From contig JBBTVY010000005.1 in the NCBI GenBank assembly GCA_038063055.1, positions 2,444 through 66,443 on the forward strand: a stretch of 64,000 nt of DNA. Reading direction: 5' to 3'. The DNA comes from Patescibacteria group bacterium (GTDB lineage: Bacteria; Patescibacteriota; Minisyncoccia; UBA6257; 2-01-FULL-56-20). A program made the position numbers and the translations under genes. Each line of letters begins with the position of its first letter. Positions within the stretch are counted from its first letter, which is position 1. The notes under the pieces are model-generated. The model was not told where the DNA came from. It searched no databases and saw nothing but the letters and a program-made list of their open reading frames with translations. This document shows positions 37,995 to 57,590 of the stretch, piece by piece.

Positions 37995-38061
37995 AATAGT
38001 AGCATGGTCAGTTTCATAATATCCTAGAGTGGAAATGGTATCTCGATGAAAATATCGTTTG

Positions 38062-38134
38062 TGGGCCAGGAAGGACTCGAACCTTCGATCCTCAAGGTAT
38101 AAGCTTGATGCTTTAGCCGCTAAGCTACTGGCCC
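38062..38134 (-). tRNA. tRNA-Ile with UAU anticodon (reads AUA)
   Basis: Clean cloverleaf GGGCCAG/CTGGCCC, anticodon stem TCAAG/CTTGA, loop CTTATAC (U33, A37), T-loop TTCGAGT, A73. Confidence 0.7.
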
Positions 38135-40856: not shown

Positions 40857-41555
40857 TTATTCGTTTTTGTTTTTGACGGCCGCCGCCAAAATTCGAAGCA
40901 GGAAAACGAGAATTATAAATAACGAAGATATCAAAGTAATGGAAATCAATCCGTACTGGTAGCTTGCCGGGTCGAACCATCCCTTGAAGCCCATGATGGC
41001 GACATGGAGAAGTGTGAAAAAATAAGCAAGATAACCCAGCCGTTGGACTGATTTCCAATGTCCGGGTTTCATTCTTTCTTCAATCGCCGGAACGGAAGCA
41101 ATGGAAACAGCGGAAAAAACAAGGAAAGCCAAAACTCCGAAAAGAAGAGAAGTTTCTCCGATAAAGTTCATTTTCCCGCCCAAATCGAAAAATCTCGGAT
41201 AGTAAGCCGGGCTAAGAATCGCGAGCGAAATGAGTGAATGCAGGGCGGCCGTGCCGAACCCCAGAACACCGAGCGGTTTCCTTAAATAAAGCTTTGAATC
41301 AAAAATTTGCGGCCAGAACCGCGCCAGTGGGCCAAGAACAAACGACAAACCGATAATTATTAAAGCGGAAAGTGCGATAGCTTTATTGGCTATGAAAAGC
41401 GGAATCTGCTCTAATGGAACATTGCGTACGATATTATATCGCACGAACGCATATAAAAAAGACAAGCCGAAAACCAGCAAAGAAATAAAAAATCCTTTTT
41501 TCCATCCCCCTGTCTGCGCAGGCAGGCCGGACTGATTTGGGTTCGTTACGTCCAT
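40857..41555 (-). CDS. Ferric-reductase-like transmembrane domain protein (YedZ/MsrQ-like, 6 TM, conserved His)
   Basis: Six predicted TM helices with His in 'AALHSLISL' and 'LLHVAIMG'. Confidence 0.4.
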   Translation of the reverse strand: MDVTNPNQSGLPAQTGGWKKGFFISLLVFGLSFLYAFVRYNIVRNVPLEQIPLFIANKAIALSALIIIGLSFVLGPLARFWPQIFDSKLYLRKPLGVLGFGTAALHSLISLAILSPAYYPRFFDLGGKMNFIGETSLLFGVLAFLVFSAVSIASVPAIEERMKPGHWKSVQRLGYLAYFFTLLHVAIMGFKGWFDPASYQYGLISITLISSLFIILVFLLRILAAAVKNKNE

Positions 41556-41606
41556 AAGATTATTTCTTGATGCGTTATAACAAATTTCTCGTAAGCGCGT
41601 CAGGAA

Positions 41607-41867
41607 TTATATTGCTGCCGTAAAGGCAGTTATTATTCCCAAAACAACGGCAGGCACGTTGCAGACGATAATCGGCCAAGATTTTTTTTCCAAGAAAGAG
41701 CCGTAGGTTGTCCACGCGGCTCCGTTTATCGCCGCAATAATCGGCAAAATGAGTGAGCCGGGATGTCCGGATAAATTCAATCTTATCTGGTCTATAAACG
41801 AAAAATACATGGCAATCGCCATCATGGAAGCGAACCATCCGATTCTTTCCACTATTTTTTGGTCCAT
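41607..41867 (-). CDS. SemiSWEET-like (PQ-loop/MtN3 family) small 3-TM transporter
   Basis: 86 aa; 'FIDQIRLNLSGHPGSLILPIIAAINGAAWTTYG' parallels the SemiSWEET 'Q.IK..R.......S......L.G...W..YG' pattern. Confidence 0.45.
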   Translation of the reverse strand: MDQKIVERIGWFASMMAIAMYFSFIDQIRLNLSGHPGSLILPIIAAINGAAWTTYGSFLEKKSWPIIVCNVPAVVLGIITAFTAAI

Positions 41868-41881
41868 AATCTTAAAGGATT

Positions 41882-42289
41882 TTATTTTCCTCTCTTAGCG
41901 TCCAAGCTCCACTGTCCGGCACCGGCCGCCGAGAAATAAAGGAATATGAAAGCGTAAAGAACCGCGGCGACTCCCCCGTTCATAACGGGCCAGAAACCGC
42001 CCGGGAAATGAAACTGGAAATAAGCCACGGCCATCATGCCGGAGAGAATAAACGCAACCGGGCGCGTAAAGAGCCCTAGGATTAGTAAAACGCCGCCGAC
42101 TACTTCAAGAATTCCAGCTATTCCCATCTGGGACATTAATTCCACGGTTCCGCCTGCCGGCGGGATTCCCGCCGGAAAAGCAAACAGTTTCATCGTGCCC
42201 GCGAGCAGGAACATGAATGCCGCGACTATCCTCAAAACGCTCTGGAAATAAGGGCTCCAGGAAACCCATTTTGATGTGATGTTGTTCAT
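41882..42289 (-). CDS. DoxX-family membrane protein
   Basis: 'LRIVAAFMFLLAGTMKL...GILEVVGGVLLILGLFTRPVAFIL' DoxX pattern. Confidence 0.65.
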   Translation of the reverse strand: MNNITSKWVSWSPYFQSVLRIVAAFMFLLAGTMKLFAFPAGIPPAGGTVELMSQMGIAGILEVVGGVLLILGLFTRPVAFILSGMMAVAYFQFHFPGGFWPVMNGGVAAVLYAFIFLYFSAAGAGQWSLDAKRGK

Positions 42290-42296
42290 GTCTGTA

Positions 42297-42536
42297 TTAT
42301 AGCAAATGCTTATTTCTAAACGCTATACCAGAACCAGTTTTGAGATATGATTCAAATTCCAGCGCTTGGCTCTTTTTAGGAAAAGCGCAGAACCAAACAA
42401 GTTTAAATGGATAGCGAGCTCGAGAATATCTTTGAGTGCCGGAGTTATGCTCATCTAATCGTCTGCGCAAATCACTTGTGATGCCAGTATAATAACTCTT
42501 GTCTTTTTCGCTGCGTAAAAGATATGTAAAATACAT
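42297..42536 (-). CDS. GIY-YIG nuclease-domain small protein
   Basis: 'FTYLLRSEKDKSYYTGITSDLRRRLDEHNSG'. Confidence 0.7.
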   Translation of the reverse strand: MYFTYLLRSEKDKSYYTGITSDLRRRLDEHNSGTQRYSRARYPFKLVWFCAFPKKSQALEFESYLKTGSGIAFRNKHLL

Positions 42537-42716
42537 TATAAATATAATAAAGCCCTCCTTCGCATAAAGCTATGGAGGACTACTTCGCTACCCAAAACAC
42601 AGGCTTTTGGTGAATGTTGCTAAAGAATCATAATGTAAGCGTGTGCTTAGCACTACGAAGCTTTAGCGAAGTAGTGCGTCGGGCAGGAATCTCACTACTG
42701 ACTATGCTGCTTGAGA

Positions 42717-42804
42717 TGGTGCGTGGGGCAGGATTCGAACCTGCGTAGCCCATTGGGCGTCAGATTTACAGTCTGATGCGATTGGCCGCTCCGCCACCCA
42801 CGCA
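42717..42804 (-). tRNA. tRNA-Tyr (anticodon GUA), long variable arm, CCA encoded
   Basis: GCGTGGG/CCCACGC acceptor, anticodon loop CTGTAAA, 16-nt variable arm, T-loop TTCGAAT. Confidence 0.8.
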
Positions 42805-42813
42805 CCATCTCAA

Positions 42814-43056
42814 TCAACGGTTTATTAATTTTTTAAAGGCTTCTCCGCCTTTGTATGCTTTTATTTCTCTTTCACGCCCAACTGCCCGGGCGCGAGTTCT
42901 AAAATTCTCTGCATACACTACCTTATATGGCGTACGCGACCTTGTAAAGCGGGAATGGCCTGCGTTGTGTCTTTTTAATCTAGATTTTAAATCACTAGTA
43001 GAACCGATATAATGCGAGCCGTCTTTAAGGCTCTTAATGATATAAACAAGGTACAT
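42814..43056 (-). CDS. GIY-YIG nuclease-domain small protein (second copy)
   Basis: 'MYLVYIIKSLKDGSHYIGSTSDLKSRLKRHNAGHS'; the listed N-terminal extension runs over a tRNA-fragment repeat, so the internal start is preferred. Confidence 0.65.
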   Translation of the reverse strand: MYLVYIIKSLKDGSHYIGSTSDLKSRLKRHNAGHSRFTRSRTPYKVVYAENFRTRARAVGREREIKAYKGGEAFKKLINR

Positions 43057-43091
43057 TTCAATAGCCAATTTGGGCGTCCCGCCAGCGGCGG

Positions 43092-43125
43092 GATGCGATT
43101 GGCCGCTCCGCCACCGACGCATTCA
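43092..43125. repeat. Partial direct repeat (~31 bp, 2-3 mismatches) of the tRNA-Tyr 5' half (42775..42806)
   Basis: 'gatgcgattggccgctccgccaccgacgca' versus 'gatgcgattggccgctccgccacccacgca'. Confidence 0.75.
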
Positions 43126-43208
43126 CGCCAATGATAATACTGATATCTATATTCGTCAAAAAACCTTATCAAAAATCAATATGTTCCTGTTCGAAAATAC
43201 GCAGAAAA

Positions 43209-43571
43209 CTAATTGTTTTCAGAACCAGATATCTTTTCCTTCTTTTCCTCGATTGCGGACGGAGAATCTTCAGCCAAATCTTTGAAATCTATCTTTGGTT
43301 TGCCGTTGCCATTAGGCGAAACTTTTTTGAGCTTGTCGTTGATGAAATTGTCCACCTTCATAAGAACGACTTTCATTTTCCGCAGGAATTTAGTCAAAAA
43401 ACCGTTGAAAGCGGCGTCTATTTTTTCCGGAATTTCCGAAGAAGAAAAACGTTCAAAAAAATCAGGTTTGTCCGAAAATTCTTCATCGACGCGCGGTAGC
43501 GAACGGACAACAAGATAAAGCATCGTTCCGAGAGACGCCATCAAAATCGTTGTTAAAATGAATTGGAGCAT
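43209..43571 (-). CDS. Hypothetical small membrane protein
   Basis: N-terminal TM 'ILTTILMASLGTMLYLVV'. Confidence 0.4.
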   Translation of the reverse strand: MLQFILTTILMASLGTMLYLVVRSLPRVDEEFSDKPDFFERFSSSEIPEKIDAAFNGFLTKFLRKMKVVLMKVDNFINDKLKKVSPNGNGKPKIDFKDLAEDSPSAIEEKKEKISGSENN

Positions 43572-43704
43572 GATTACTAAAATTTCTAAGCACTAATATC
43601 TAATTTCTAAATAAATTCCAATGTCTTAAAATTACAAATGTTTGAGAAATTGAAATTTGTGACTTTGTTTAGAATTTCGCGATTAGAATTTAGGATTTTA
43701 TAAA

Positions 43705-44151
43705 TTATAACTCCAATCTGGAAAAAGCTTTAACTTTTATATTTTCACCGACTTGGGCGATGGTCAGCTTTATAAGTTCGTCTATCGTTTTGGACTCGTC
43801 TTTAATATACGGCTGTTTCAAAAGTTCTTCAACATTGGCTGGGCCAATGGCCGCTATTTGCATGGCAAGTTCGTGGGCCAGTTTCCGGAACGGTTCGGAG
43901 CGAACCACGAAGTCCGTCTCCGCGCGGACATCAAGAACAACTCCTATACGCTCGTTATGCACATAAGATTCTATCAGGCCGGCTCCGGCTTCTCTGCCCG
44001 CTCTTTTTTCCACTTTTGCCAAACCGCGTTCGTGTATTATTTTGACAGCCGCGTCTAAATCGCCTTTGCTTTCCGCGAAAGCCCGCTTGCACTCCATTAC
44101 TCCCGCTCCCGTCATGTCGCGCAATTTTTTTATGGAATCAACGGCTGTCAT
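43705..44151 (-). CDS. tsf: Elongation factor Ts (short form)
   Basis: 'IKKLRDMTGAGVMECKRAF' UBA-like N-terminus; internal start preferred; downstream of rpsB. Confidence 0.8.
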   Translation of the reverse strand: MTAVDSIKKLRDMTGAGVMECKRAFAESKGDLDAAVKIIHERGLAKVEKRAGREAGAGLIESYVHNERIGVVLDVRAETDFVVRSEPFRKLAHELAMQIAAIGPANVEELLKQPYIKDESKTIDELIKLTIAQVGENIKVKAFSRLEL

Positions 44152-56929: not shown

Positions 56930-57502
56930 TTAAATCTTTTGTATCTCAAGTAGTCCTCCGCGGGCTCCCGGAACGGCTCCTTTTATCATTAAAATGTTTT
57001 TATCCACGTCGACTCCGGCTACGGTGAGATTTTTGACGGTAACGCGGTCGCCGCCCATCCGTCCGGCCATTTTCCTTCCCGGAAAAACTTTTTGCGGAGC
57101 GGTTGAACCTATCGAACCGGGGGCGCGCAAGCGGTTCTTCTGCCCGTGCGTTTTTGGACCACCATGGAAACCGTGCCTTTTGACTACGCCCTGGAATCCG
57201 CGCCCCTTGGAAACTCCGCTTACTCTGACAATGTCGCCTTCCTTGAAAACGGAAATGTTAACAGCATCGTCAACTTTGAACTTTTCCGCCAGAGGCGGAT
57301 CCGCCTTCGGCGGAGAACTTTGAACTTTGAACTCTCGCTTTCGTTTGCCGAAAGCGAGCTGGACGGCTTCATAACCGTCTTTTTCTTTTGTGCGGACGAG
57401 AGTTACCTTGTTTTTGGAAACTTCAACCAAAGTCACCGGAATGACCTTGTCTTCTTTCCAAATCTGGCTCATGTTCAGTTTTTTGCCCAATATGAAAGAC
57501 AT
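56930..57502 (-). CDS. rplC: 50S ribosomal protein L3
   Basis: 'MSFILGKKLNMSQIW'; internal start preferred. Confidence 0.85.
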   Translation of the reverse strand: MSFILGKKLNMSQIWKEDKVIPVTLVEVSKNKVTLVRTKEKDGYEAVQLAFGKRKREFKVQSSPPKADPPLAEKFKVDDAVNISVFKEGDIVRVSGVSKGRGFQGVVKRHGFHGGPKTHGQKNRLRAPGSIGSTAPQKVFPGRKMAGRMGGDRVTVKNLTVAGVDVDKNILMIKGAVPGARGGLLEIQKI

Positions 57503-57590
57503 CTTGGTTTTCTGCGAAAATCGGTATGTATACGATTTGGCGCATGCCGGAATATTGTATACAAACAAACGGCTCCCGTCAATATGGGTA

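Follow-up and report, generated by a model that had tools for sequence, protein, structure and literature searches.

What is the origin of a locus in which a single intact tRNA-Tyr gene is flanked on both sides by genes for GIY-YIG proteins of only 79-80 amino acids, with an incomplete copy of the same tRNA beside them? The locus lies in the window, the whole 64,000-nucleotide stretch of a Patescibacteria group bacterium genome that was analyzed, and all of its features are encoded on the minus strand. The gene upstream of the tRNA is referred to here as family A and the downstream gene as family B.

Anatomy of the tRNA-Tyr locus

42297..42536, minus strand: family B GIY-YIG gene, 79 aa, C-terminal motif YLKTGSGIAFRNKHLL (PF01541, E = 7e-19)
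42537..42677, minus strand: structured leader of the family B element (inverted repeat, fold and covariation)
about 42675..42691, minus strand: outer tRNA-Tyr 3' fragment, whose sequence complements the outer 5' fragment (repeat analysis)
42708..42727, minus strand: 3' arm of an extended stem, made of the acceptor 3' strand, CCA and the trailer TCTCAA (inverted repeat and fold)
42717..42803, minus strand: intact tRNA-Tyr (GTA) with encoded CCA and acceptor stem GCGTGGG/CCCACGC (ARAGORN; Rfam tRNA, 60.8 bits)
42797..42816, minus strand: 5' arm of the extended stem, which lengthens the tRNA-Tyr acceptor stem by about 10 bp and includes the family A stop codon (20-nt inverted repeat)
42814..43056, minus strand: family A GIY-YIG gene, 80 aa, C-terminal motif YKGGEAFKKL (PF01541 and alignment)
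43061..43120, minus strand: outer tRNA-Tyr 5' fragment (tRNA*), with acceptor GCGTCGG, an intact D arm, a hairpin and a variable-arm-like stretch (repeat analysis)
43077..43093, minus strand: GC hairpin TCCCGCC-GCT-GGCGGGA, which replaces the anticodon arm of the outer 5' fragment (sequence)
43131..43159, minus strand: promoter-like site, TTGACG and TATCAT separated by 17 nt, immediately upstream of the outer 5' fragment (10/12 consensus matches)

The arrangement described in the earlier note, two small GIY-YIG genes on either side of tRNA-Tyr, is borne out: both proteins score above the curated cut-off of PF01541 (68.3 and 53.2 bits versus 22.6), and the tRNA is identified by ARAGORN as well as Rfam. 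The open reading frame of family A spans 42814..43122 (PF01541, E = 4e-14), its 5' extension to 43122 running through the tRNA-like fragment. The gene most likely starts at the ATG at 43056, giving an 80-aa product that is 100% identical, over its full length, to an 80-aa NCBI protein (P0001).

The imperfect copy of the tRNA 5' region is real, with positions 42775-42804 and 43092-43121 forming a direct repeat of 30 nt at 97% identity. Neither ARAGORN nor Rfam calls the outer 5' fragment as a tRNA; they return one tRNA only in 41500-44000 and no cloverleaf at 43060-43125, so the copy is not part of a complete second tRNA gene. Its GC hairpin is 17 nt long, exactly the length of the anticodon arm that it replaces, and is followed by the variable-arm-like stretch at 43076..43061. 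A counterpart absent from the earlier note lies downstream of the intact tRNA-Tyr. This 17-nt outer 3' fragment runs from the second half of the T loop through the 3' strand of the T stem and that of the acceptor stem, CCGACGC, to the discriminator A, and, relative to the inner tRNA, its C-to-G change compensates a G-to-C change in the upstream copy. What had been proposed to be a duplicated target of about 31 bp is thus rather a split tRNA-Tyr whose 5' and 3' parts flank an intact one, and the arrangement is therefore nested. With its anticodon arm and T-stem 5' strand missing, the split copy cannot yield a reassembled tRNA, unlike the exons on either side of a group I intron.

Comparison with related loci supports this description. 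The outer 5' fragment corresponds in sequence and position to the 5' end of the resident tRNA-Tyr of locus L083, and the acceptor sequence of the outer 3' fragment is the same as in that gene. In L001, an independent assembly with the same nested arrangement as the window, the outer 5' fragment is identical except for a D-loop insertion, the outer 3' fragment is identical, and the GC hairpin has an identical stem with a different loop. Since the outer fragments and the hairpin stem are identical in the window and L001 although dS is about 1, they are constrained, as would be expected of homology arms or processing signals.

The intact tRNA-Tyr is itself embedded in a longer structure: the two 20-nt arms of its extended acceptor stem (42797..42816 and 42708..42727) are 95% complementary, are paired in the minimum-free-energy fold and show one compensatory change relative to L001 (G/C versus A/T). 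The promoter-like site at 43131..43159 retains both hexamer regions in L001 and probably represents the original promoter of tRNA-Tyr, from which the entire unit may be transcribed; a scan of the locus found no terminator-like site on the minus strand before 42267. Searching the locus with Rfam at E = 10 returned only the tRNA, with no riboswitch or known leader and, even at this threshold, no match to any intron family; at the gathering score only tRNA and tmRNA were found in ten related loci. No tyrosine or serine recombinase is encoded between the repeats, where the GIY-YIG genes are the sole family-matching open reading frames.

The spacer between the intact tRNA and the family B gene had been noted for its alternative stems, and these are real. 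A perfect 12-bp inverted repeat (42579-42590 / 42664-42675) is present, and the RNA has a minimum free energy of -48.4 kcal/mol (z = -4.67), with 0/200 shuffles folding as well. In one conformation, P1 pairs 42677-42671 with 42656-42650; in the alternative, 42675-42664 pairs over a long range with 42590-42579. A distal hairpin joins 42578-42574 to 42558-42554. The suggestion of a structured RNA holds in that the fold is conserved with covarying pairs across family B loci, the same leader following the tRNA-Tyr of L083 and the tmRNA of L086; it is not an independent RNA gene but the leader of the family B element, its start coinciding exactly with the discriminator of the outer tRNA 3' fragment. 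No Rfam family matches it. A role for the distal hairpin in sequestering the Shine-Dalgarno sequence was rejected, as anything from about 4 to 41 nt separates its 3' arm from the ATG, depending on the locus.

Two nuclease families and their tRNA partners

The two proteins are not duplicates of each other; they represent different families, 38% identical, with distinctive C-terminal motifs (YKGGEAFKKL in family A, YLKTGSGIAFRNK in family B) and mirror-image architectures, on the 5' and the 3' side of the tRNA respectively. Residues Y5, Y16, G18, R26, H30 and E62 are invariant in an alignment across both families, and Y5, Y16, R26, H30 and E62 align with the GIY-YIG catalytic positions. The model of the family A protein (pLDDT 92) shows the order strand-strand-helix-strand-helix-helix, a three-stranded sheet with flanking helices. 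Structure comparison gives TM scores of 0.66-0.73 for Slx1 versus 0.53-0.57 for I-TevI and 0.59 for UvrC, and the best sequence matches are 1zg2 (E = 3.5e-13) and 1ywl (4.7e-11), followed by Slx1. Based on these comparisons, both proteins are closest to the minimal Slx1/UPF0213 lineage, not to the UvrC or I-TevI lineage. At 79-80 aa the catalytic domain makes up the whole protein, with no auxiliary or DNA-binding domain. The dN/dS ratios, 0.11 for family A (against L001) and 0.14 for family B (against L083), at dS of about 1, indicate purifying selection on both genes.

Searches of NCBIfam, PADLOC and PHROGs gave weak, generic homing-endonuclease matches for family A and none for family B. For instance, the NCBIfam model grpIintron_endo aligned with residues 4-40 of the family A protein at 25.4 bits (cut-off 56), and PADLOC yielded no significant defence match, its best being a generic homing-endonuclease model (E = 0.0015, family A). 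The likeness to homing endonucleases raised in the earlier note is thus an analogy and not a membership, because the proteins are bare Slx1/UPF0213 nuclease domains without a DNA-binding domain.

Exact-sequence look-ups of both window proteins found no record, and genomic context was taken from homologues, which associate with tRNA or tmRNA genes in well over a hundred independent loci when both families are considered; the partner tRNA varies among genomes. Family A has 418 relatives in species-representative genomes of Patescibacteria, Bacteroidota and other phyla. In Patescibacteria the gene lies directly 5' of a tRNA, and a hairpin-modified tRNA copy precedes it. A same-strand tRNA call is directly adjacent to 71 of the 103 gene copies; at most of the others no tRNA was called because of a tandem array, a contig end or read-through into the tRNA, and the array copies of L038 are tRNA-like by Rfam (43.6 bits). 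The gap between stop codon and tRNA is -15 to +10 nt in 37/42 cases. In nearly all Patescibacteria-type loci the upstream copy begins at tRNA position 1, its end varying from the D arm to the T loop, and tandem arrays reach up to 8 units.

The GC hairpin is a hallmark of family A loci. The pattern CCGCC-N3-6-GGCGG occurs within 200 nt of the gene at 63/81 family A loci versus 0/82 family B loci and is 24-fold enriched near the family A gene. Its stems are conserved in sequence across phyla; the loop varies in length (3, 4 or 5 nt), and a variant with a bulged A recurs. These two variations disfavor an interrupted palindrome bound by a dimer in double-stranded DNA, and they favor a hairpin that would form in single-stranded nucleic acid. 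Mismatches in the stems were compared for a bias towards G-T, as expected of sense-strand RNA, over A-C: there are 18 of the former and 10 of the latter, counted in a set into which genuine tRNA stems had also entered.

A hairpin pair is also present, in frame, within the L3 gene of the window, where, by comparison with solved L3 proteins, it sits in a variable region of the protein.

Family B has at least 566 relatives in metagenome contigs. In 50 of 65 loci its gene lies beyond the 3' end of a same-strand tRNA or tmRNA, which is at most 360 nt upstream, and the partners comprise 22 isoacceptor types as well as tmRNA. Downstream of the gene, exact repeats of the tRNA 3' terminus of 10-20 nt were found at 14/54 loci; 12 of these 14 are 12-20 nt long, and most start in or directly after the T loop. 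The copy in the window has no such distal repeat.

Presence of each gene differs among relatives. Next to the orthologous upstream gene, only family A occurs in L001, only family B in L083 and L084 (where an intact tRNA-Tyr carries the downstream gene alone), and both in the window, which implies at least one loss or lateral transfer. The part of the earlier proposal that envisaged insertion of GIY-YIG genes finds support in this polymorphism, which the comparison of related tRNA-Tyr loci brought out for each gene. In two scans of viral contigs, one weak match was obtained for family A and one clear match for family B; with the elements almost absent there, a phage origin is unsupported and no vector is evident.

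Candidate origins of the nested locus

We lean, with a confidence only somewhat above an even chance, towards reading the locus as a nested pair of tRNA-gene-targeting mobile mini-elements, each encoding a minimal nuclease of the Slx1/UPF0213 type. This reading starts from the observed anatomy, the association with tRNA and tmRNA genes, the tRNA-derived repeats, the polymorphism, the purifying selection and the Slx1-like fold. Each of these selfish-looking elements measures about 0.3-0.4 kb, and its sole gene encodes an 80-residue Slx1-like GIY-YIG nuclease. The starting point would have been a resident tRNA-Tyr with the acceptor stem GCGTCGG/CCGACGC, still intact in L083. The family B element, consisting of leader and nuclease gene, would have entered exactly at its 3' end, after which a family A cassette carrying its nuclease gene and a complete tRNA-Tyr would have interrupted the resident gene at a point between its variable arm and its T loop. 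A promoter-proximal 5' fragment, its anticodon arm now a GC hairpin, and the 17-nt 3' fragment would be the result.

The elements are probably transcribed from the tRNA promoter as a single precursor. The nuclease would cut tRNA-gene DNA and may recognize structure, as Slx1 does, either an extruded hairpin or cloverleaf or the T-loop region; the element would then be copied in by recombination, with the retained tRNA-derived repeats serving as homology. Host cost would be low because elements in or against a tRNA supply or preserve a working one. Several points weigh against mobility. The proteins lack a DNA-binding domain, which leaves target recognition unexplained; an intact tRNA would have to be protected from a neighboring nuclease directed at tRNA genes; the exact 3' repeat is kept at only about a quarter of family B loci; and the hairpin stems are conserved in sequence across phyla. 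The tRNA-derived repeats also differ in extent between loci, which is at odds with both a fixed staggered cut and a single homing junction.

A more specific proposal, which we put forward as possible but doubtful, is that the elements form a previously unrecognized class of minimal transposable elements of about 0.3-0.4 kb, with a structure-recognizing Slx1-like nuclease and with the tRNA-derived repeats as target duplications. The nuclease would recognize extruded hairpin or cloverleaf DNA at tRNA and tmRNA genes instead of a sequence, family A entering on the 5' side of the tRNA and family B on the 3' side. The CCGCC-N3-GGCGG hairpins could be its recognition structures or non-autonomous partners that it moves, the latter suggested by the pair found in frame in the L3 gene.

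It is unlikely, in our assessment, that the nucleases serve the host by processing, repairing or controlling the quality of the tRNA and tmRNA precursors with which they would be co-expressed, with the tRNA-like fragments and the leader as processing or regulatory signals. The apparent single transcription unit from the tRNA promoter, the conserved alternative pairings of the family B leader from the tRNA discriminator onward and the constraint on the outer fragments would all suit such a role; the patchy distribution, even between close relatives, the change of partner tRNA between genomes and the tandem arrays of up to 8 gene copies would not, and partial tRNA duplications and frequent assembly breaks mark mobile DNA rather than a gene with a housekeeping role. 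Classical homing, to which we give a slightly lower, clearly small probability, would have each nuclease recognize a long site in one tRNA gene and spread by double-strand-break repair, with co-converted flanks and the modified tRNA copy as a cleavage-immune allele. The precedent is T4 SegB, a GIY-YIG homing endonuclease that resides, and cuts, in a tRNA gene region (PMC2330249). The presence/absence polymorphism and the weak profile matches of the family A protein point the same way, and the hairpin, which disrupts the copy exactly in the arms, could mark the recognition site. Yet bare domains nearer to Slx1/UPF0213 than to I-TevI make poor candidates for such enzymes, the 22 tRNA types and tmRNA at which family B occurs make a long sequence specificity improbable, phage contigs are essentially devoid of the elements, and the neighboring intact tRNA would stay cleavable.

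An addictive, non-transposing module of the toxin-antitoxin or defence type, in which the hairpin-modified tRNA-like RNA acts as decoy or antitoxin to a nuclease toxin, is very improbable. In its favor, the nuclease gene is closely coupled to a non-coding tRNA-like RNA that is structured and under constraint, units of which flank the gene repeatedly in arrays; against it, known defence and toxin families gave no significant match, family B has no tRNA-like decoy, and precise junctions at tRNA ends together with tRNA-derived direct repeats would be left unexplained. Hardly any weight falls on the absence of an element altogether, that is, on a tandem duplication of tRNA-Tyr, arisen by chance or in decay, near unrelated small genes or on a chimeric metagenome assembly at repeated tRNA sequence. 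The source is a metagenome-assembled genome, tRNA repeats break assemblies, and many loci end at the element; against this stand the recurrence in L001 and across independent loci, and a 30-nt repeat that, together with its compensating 3' fragment, lies far beyond chance.

If the preferred reading as mobile mini-elements is correct, they would rank with the smallest known autonomous DNA elements, and widespread bacterial stand-alone Slx1-like GIY-YIG proteins, so far without a function, would gain a concrete role. Mobility would also explain tRNA copies that are partial or "pseudo", unusual tRNA calls in which a hairpin stands in for an arm, and the tandem tRNA-like arrays and assembly breaks at tRNA loci of Patescibacteria and Bacteroidota. 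The system poses the questions of how an essential single-copy tRNA gene can be colonized without being lost, here by an insert that carries or preserves a working tRNA, and of whether DNA or RNA structure can guide a nuclease that lacks a DNA-binding domain to its target. Two new candidate structured RNAs, neither of them in Rfam, emerge from the locus: the tRNA-like RNA with its hyper-stable hairpin, and the leader that starts at the tRNA 3' end and can pair in alternative ways.

Relation to known systems

We found no published description of an association between mini-nucleases and tRNA genes in the full-text literature that was searched, which takes in only a minority of subscription journals. 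A close parallel is T4 SegB (PMC2330249), a GIY-YIG gene among or against tRNA genes that is present or absent between relatives; for the free-standing GIY-YIG homing endonucleases of T4-like phages, too, the presumed route of spread is recombination that a break induces and that uses homology in the flanks. SegB-type enzymes, however, exceed 200 aa, possess DNA-binding domains, are phage-borne and act on a specific sequence, whereas the proteins described here are 80-aa bare Slx1/UPF0213 domains. Families A and B also depart from SegB in their setting: they are chromosomal and nearly missing from viral contigs, they occur with many different tRNAs, and partial tRNA copies, GC hairpins or a structured leader lie beside them.

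The stand-alone Slx1-like/UPF0213 proteins BH0048 (1zg2) and EF2693 (1ywl) share the same minimal domain and are the best matches, but families A and B differ from them in their distinctive C-terminal motifs and fixed genomic context. An Slx1 cluster of GIY-YIG proteins appears in the survey by Dunin-Horkawicz et al. 2006 (PMC1564403), the searched text of which makes no mention of linkage to tRNA genes.

Family B resembles integrase islands and prophages in its position at tRNA and tmRNA 3' ends, in the short direct repeat of that end and in leaving the tRNA intact. Unlike them, families A and B encode no tyrosine or serine recombinase and span about 0.4 kb, not tens of kb; the left junction of family B lies at the discriminator/CCA, its repeat length ranges from 8 to 20 nt, and family A is the mirror image at the tRNA 5' end. 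In Archaea, disrupted, split or intron-bearing tRNA genes have been attributed to the integration of mobile elements, according to one report (PMC3293823). They resemble the present locus in that inserted DNA splits a tRNA gene with partial duplication, and they differ from it in that the host here is bacterial, the split copy cannot be reassembled and a complete replacement tRNA lies inside the insert.

REP/BIME sequences, which are associated with RAYT transposases, and the Rickettsia palindromic elements are small GC-rich palindromic repeats that colonize genes. They can be likened to the family A hairpins in being short, conserved in sequence, often paired and inserted into structured RNA genes. 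Unlike REP/BIME, no Y1 transposase is found at families A and B, and the hairpins, 13-17 nt in length, take the place of tRNA arms of equal length and go together with a GIY-YIG gene.

The tRNA-Tyr locus and its split copy

Pfam, ARAGORN and Rfam confirm that two small GIY-YIG genes flank tRNA-Tyr, as the earlier note had it. All features of the locus lie on the minus strand:

42803–42717, minus strand: tRNA-Tyr(GTA) with encoded CCA (ARAGORN and the Rfam tRNA model)
42536–42297, minus strand: downstream GIY-YIG ORF (family B), 79 aa, well over the Pfam GIY-YIG cut-off
43122–42814, minus strand: upstream GIY-YIG ORF (family A), likewise well over the Pfam GIY-YIG cut-off

The upstream gene most likely starts at the ATG at 43056, giving an 80-aa product that matches an 80-aa NCBI protein at 100% identity over its full length. 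A phmmer search against all six-frame ORFs found no further GIY-YIG gene in the window. According to an inverted-repeat search and folding, about 10 additional base pairs between leader and trailer enclose the intact tRNA-Tyr. ARAGORN also calls a tRNA-Ile with anticodon TAT at 38061–38134 on the minus strand; few bacteria use this anticodon, most reading AUA via a modified CAT anticodon.

The copy of the tRNA 5' part, previously described as about 31 bp long, is present as a direct repeat of 30 nt (42775–42804 versus 43092–43121, 97% identity), but it extends past the repeat and forms one end of a split tRNA. On the minus strand, this upstream copy runs through the acceptor 5' strand and D arm into TCCCGCC-GCT-GGCGGGA, a 17-nt hairpin of exactly the length of the anticodon arm it replaces, followed by a variable-arm-like stretch and then the upstream gene's start codon. 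A second repeat, not previously described, is GATTCCTGCCCGACGCA, located 25 nt downstream of the intact tRNA-Tyr, which copies the 3' half of the T loop and the 3' strands of the T stem and acceptor. Relative to the intact tRNA-Tyr, the acceptor of the upstream copy carries a G-to-C change and the downstream copy the complementary C-to-G. Both outer pieces therefore derive from one former tRNA-Tyr (GCGTCGG/CCGACGC), which, judging from these sequences, now brackets the upstream nuclease gene and a complete tRNA-Tyr (GCGTGGG/CCCACGC). The outer pieces are recognised as a tRNA by neither ARAGORN nor Rfam, and the repeat is thus not part of a second complete tRNA gene. A promoter-like site lies immediately upstream of the outer 5' fragment; no terminator-like site was found after it on the same strand within the unit.

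Related loci and sequence constraint

The nested arrangement is matched base for base in L001, a locus from an independent assembly whose nuclease is 82% identical to the window's upstream protein. The two share promoter hexamers, outer 5' fragment, hairpin (same stem, different loop), family A gene, tRNA with extended stem, spacer and outer 3' fragment, with one compensatory change in the extended stem (G/C versus A/T). The downstream gene is absent from L001, and similarity stops exactly at the start of the window's own spacer, between that gene and the intact tRNA. Two further loci, L083 and L084, each have a homologue (82% identical) of the downstream gene and lack the upstream GIY-YIG gene. 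Their order begins with the gene for the orthologous upstream protein (79% identity), continues with a tRNA-Tyr that is uninterrupted and has the "outer" acceptor sequence, and ends with the same leader followed by the downstream gene. There are therefore three states beside the same upstream gene, namely A only (L001), B only (L083/L084) and both (the window), which establishes the insertion polymorphism at tRNA-Tyr that the earlier note proposed to look for. The window's leader is joined to the outer 3' fragment rather than to the intact tRNA, suggesting that B was the earlier arrival, as in L083, with A splitting the resident tRNA afterwards; the alternative is the reverse order.

Purifying values of dN/dS were obtained for the window against L001 (0.11) and L083 (0.14), with dS about 1. 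Although synonymous sites are near saturation, no difference separates the window from L001 in the hairpin stem, in the outer 5' fragment or in the outer 3' fragment of 19 nt. The shared bases include an A-to-T change in the T-loop remnant that the intact tRNA lacks, so copying from the inner tRNA by gene conversion cannot account for the match; the "fossil" pieces are therefore under constraint.

Other details differ between loci. At 303–337, L001 has a 35-nt insertion in the D loop of its outer tRNA fragment, absent from the window's otherwise identical fragment. It consists of two hairpins, one of a bulged-A type and the other its partner in inverted orientation; by sequence comparison, the hairpins were gained or lost recently. 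In a Buchananbacteria genome (L008, 2380–3300), a family A gene, tRNA-Tyr and a second GIY-YIG gene lie inside one outer-fragment pair, and a complex hairpin-bearing upstream block occurs again downstream, a nesting unlike the window's.

Two families, their tRNA partners and the family B leader

The window's two proteins share 38% identity in the family alignment and differ in their C-terminal motifs, which marks their genes as members of two families rather than two copies. Family A has 418 relatives (one genome per species) in many Patescibacteria lineages, Bacteroidota, Calditrichota, Thermotogota and others, and the gene lies directly against a same-strand tRNA (79 loci fetched). In Patescibacteria it immediately precedes tRNA-Tyr, several tRNA-Ser species, Glu, Gly or Cys, and a copy of the same tRNA, from position 1, lies upstream of it; for 37 of 42 cases, the gap between stop codon and tRNA falls between -15 and +10 nt. 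The gene in Bacteroidota comes after an intact tRNA-Pro, and its stop codon falls within a second tRNA-Pro with its D arm replaced by a hairpin. Tandem arrays of gene and modified tRNA reach eight units, and the modified tRNA-Pro copies still score 43–46 bits with the Rfam tRNA model. The longest array (L038, 1534–4377, Bacteroidota) has a 347-bp period behind one intact tRNA-Pro; other Bacteroidota arrays (L017, L018, L011, L062) have 3–5 units of about 357–363 bp each.

The extent of the tRNA-derived repeats varies among loci. At four of them (L004, L076, L078, L010) the outer fragments overlap, with the hairpin on both sides, and in L004 the outer acceptor halves pair mutually and differ from the inner tRNA. 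At L070 (1–230), three partial tRNA-Thr copies, uninterrupted by any nuclease gene, follow tRNA-Thr(GGT), and in one of them a CCCGCC-GTT-GGCGGG hairpin replaces the T arm; further downstream come two family A genes in tandem at tRNA-Tyr.

Family B comprises at least 566 relatives on metagenome contigs. Where enough upstream sequence was available, a same-strand tRNA or tmRNA ends at most 360 nt upstream (50 of 65 loci), and the partners span 22 isoacceptor types and tmRNA, with Rfam adding one more tmRNA partner (L095). The leader starts at the discriminator or CCA. Downstream of the gene, an exact 10–20-nt repeat of the tRNA 3' terminus occurs at 14 of 54 loci (12–20 nt in 12), and most of these repeats start in, or right after, the T loop. 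Family B lies at the 3' end of tmRNA (ssrA) in L086 (2001–2790), L088, L092, L095, L105, L117 and L130; the L086 leader begins almost identically to that behind the window's tRNA-Tyr, and a 10-nt repeat of the tmRNA terminus follows.

The long stems noticed in the spacer hold up: it contains a perfect 12-bp inverted repeat and folds with z = -4.67 versus shuffles. This spacer is a structured family B leader, without a match to any Rfam family, whose plan is common to tRNA-Tyr, tRNA-Ala, tRNA-His and tmRNA loci:

Part 1: variable box, then CTTCGC
Part 2: loop
Part 3: GCTWCG, then the complement of the box (hairpin P1)
Part 4: CAAGCAC-like motif
Part 5, further downstream: GCGAAG and the box complement again, an alternative long-range pairing with the first segment
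Part 6: distal hairpin with a conserved internal loop

The exact reverse complement of the 5-nt box occurs in its own leader in 68% of 56 cases and in other leaders in 10%; for two or more such sites, the values are 29% versus 1.7%. Aligning 14 sequences gives 93% pairing for P1 and the distal hairpin, versus 79% in shuffles and about 40% when slid, the first figure being inflated by deriving the structure from the same sequences. The double-sided changes in 10 of 17 pairs are free of that inflation and corroborate the fold through covariation. The structure may act as RNA or as single-stranded DNA.

Contigs very often end a few hundred bases from family A or B genes, on the tRNA side (for example L015, L019, L021–L023, L026, L090, L124, L138 and L147). 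The tRNA-derived repeats thus appear to break metagenome assemblies, and the elements are therefore probably under-counted.

Nuclease type, hairpins and mode of spread

The aligned GIY-YIG catalytic positions (Y5, Y16, R26, H30, E62) are invariant in both families, and AlphaFold gives a confident model (pLDDT 92). Among solved proteins, the nearest in sequence are BH0048 and EF2693, structural-genomics proteins of UPF0213, and then Slx1; in structure, the best alignment is with the nuclease domain of Slx1 (TM about 0.7, rmsd 2.1–2.8 Å), ahead of I-TevI (TM about 0.55) and UvrC. Slx1 is described as a structure-specific endonuclease for branched DNA (PDB 6seh, 7cq4). A 2006 superfamily survey treats stand-alone prokaryotic Slx1-like domains as the minimal form, and the portion of its text searched makes no mention of tRNA linkage (PMC1564403).

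A CCGCC-N3-6-GGCGG hairpin lies within 200 nt of the family A gene in 63 of 81 loci, at 1.92 per kb versus 0.08 per kb in the remainder of the same loci; near family B genes it was never found. Its stem sequence is conserved across phyla. The varied loop length among distinct hairpins (3 nt, n=64; 4 nt, n=6; 5 nt, n=6) and a recurrent bulged-A variant point to a hairpin in single-stranded nucleic acid rather than a duplex palindrome. Together with the Slx1-like fold and the T-loop breakpoints, the hairpins suggest recognition of structure rather than sequence.

On balance, we lean towards a pair of selfish mini-elements, mirror images of each other in the way they colonise tRNA genes. A would enter at the tRNA 5' side and leave a hairpin-modified upstream copy, and B would enter at the 3' end and leave a short downstream copy. 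Each would keep a functional tRNA and ride its promoter; the nuclease would start the spread, and recombination on tRNA-derived repeats would complete it. Under this model, the intact tRNA next to the nuclease gene would need some protection from cleavage.

The homing-endonuclease-like insertion put forward in the earlier note survives in its insertion polymorphism, but both proteins fail a defining feature of classical homing endonucleases because they have no DNA-binding domain. Classical sequence-specific homing, as by T4 SegB, seems quite unlikely. Constraint on the outer pieces fits homology arms of a homing-type element. It is likewise compatible with a shared transcript that carries processing or stability signals, as a host RNA-processing role might require; we regard that role as unlikely, if a shade less so than sequence-specific homing. 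A toxin or decoy module is improbable, and chance or artefact is scarcely credible for an arrangement found in independent assemblies. In full-text literature that takes in only a minority of subscription journals, no account of a link between GIY-YIG genes and tRNA or tmRNA genes on bacterial chromosomes came to light, nor any of tRNA copies with substituted hairpins; T4 SegB, integrase islands at tRNA 3' ends and the disrupted tRNAs of archaea come closest as precedents.

The hairpin motif occurs 6 times in the window versus 0.45 expected. Two adjacent in-frame CCGCC-N3-GGCGG hairpins (57286–57313) lie in the ribosomal protein L3 gene (minus strand, 56930–57568), where they code for SSPPKADPPLAE and have AACTTTGAACTT repeats on both sides. 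This pair and the motif excess could mean that the hairpins are themselves small mobile palindromes; the L3 site is a variable region of the protein.
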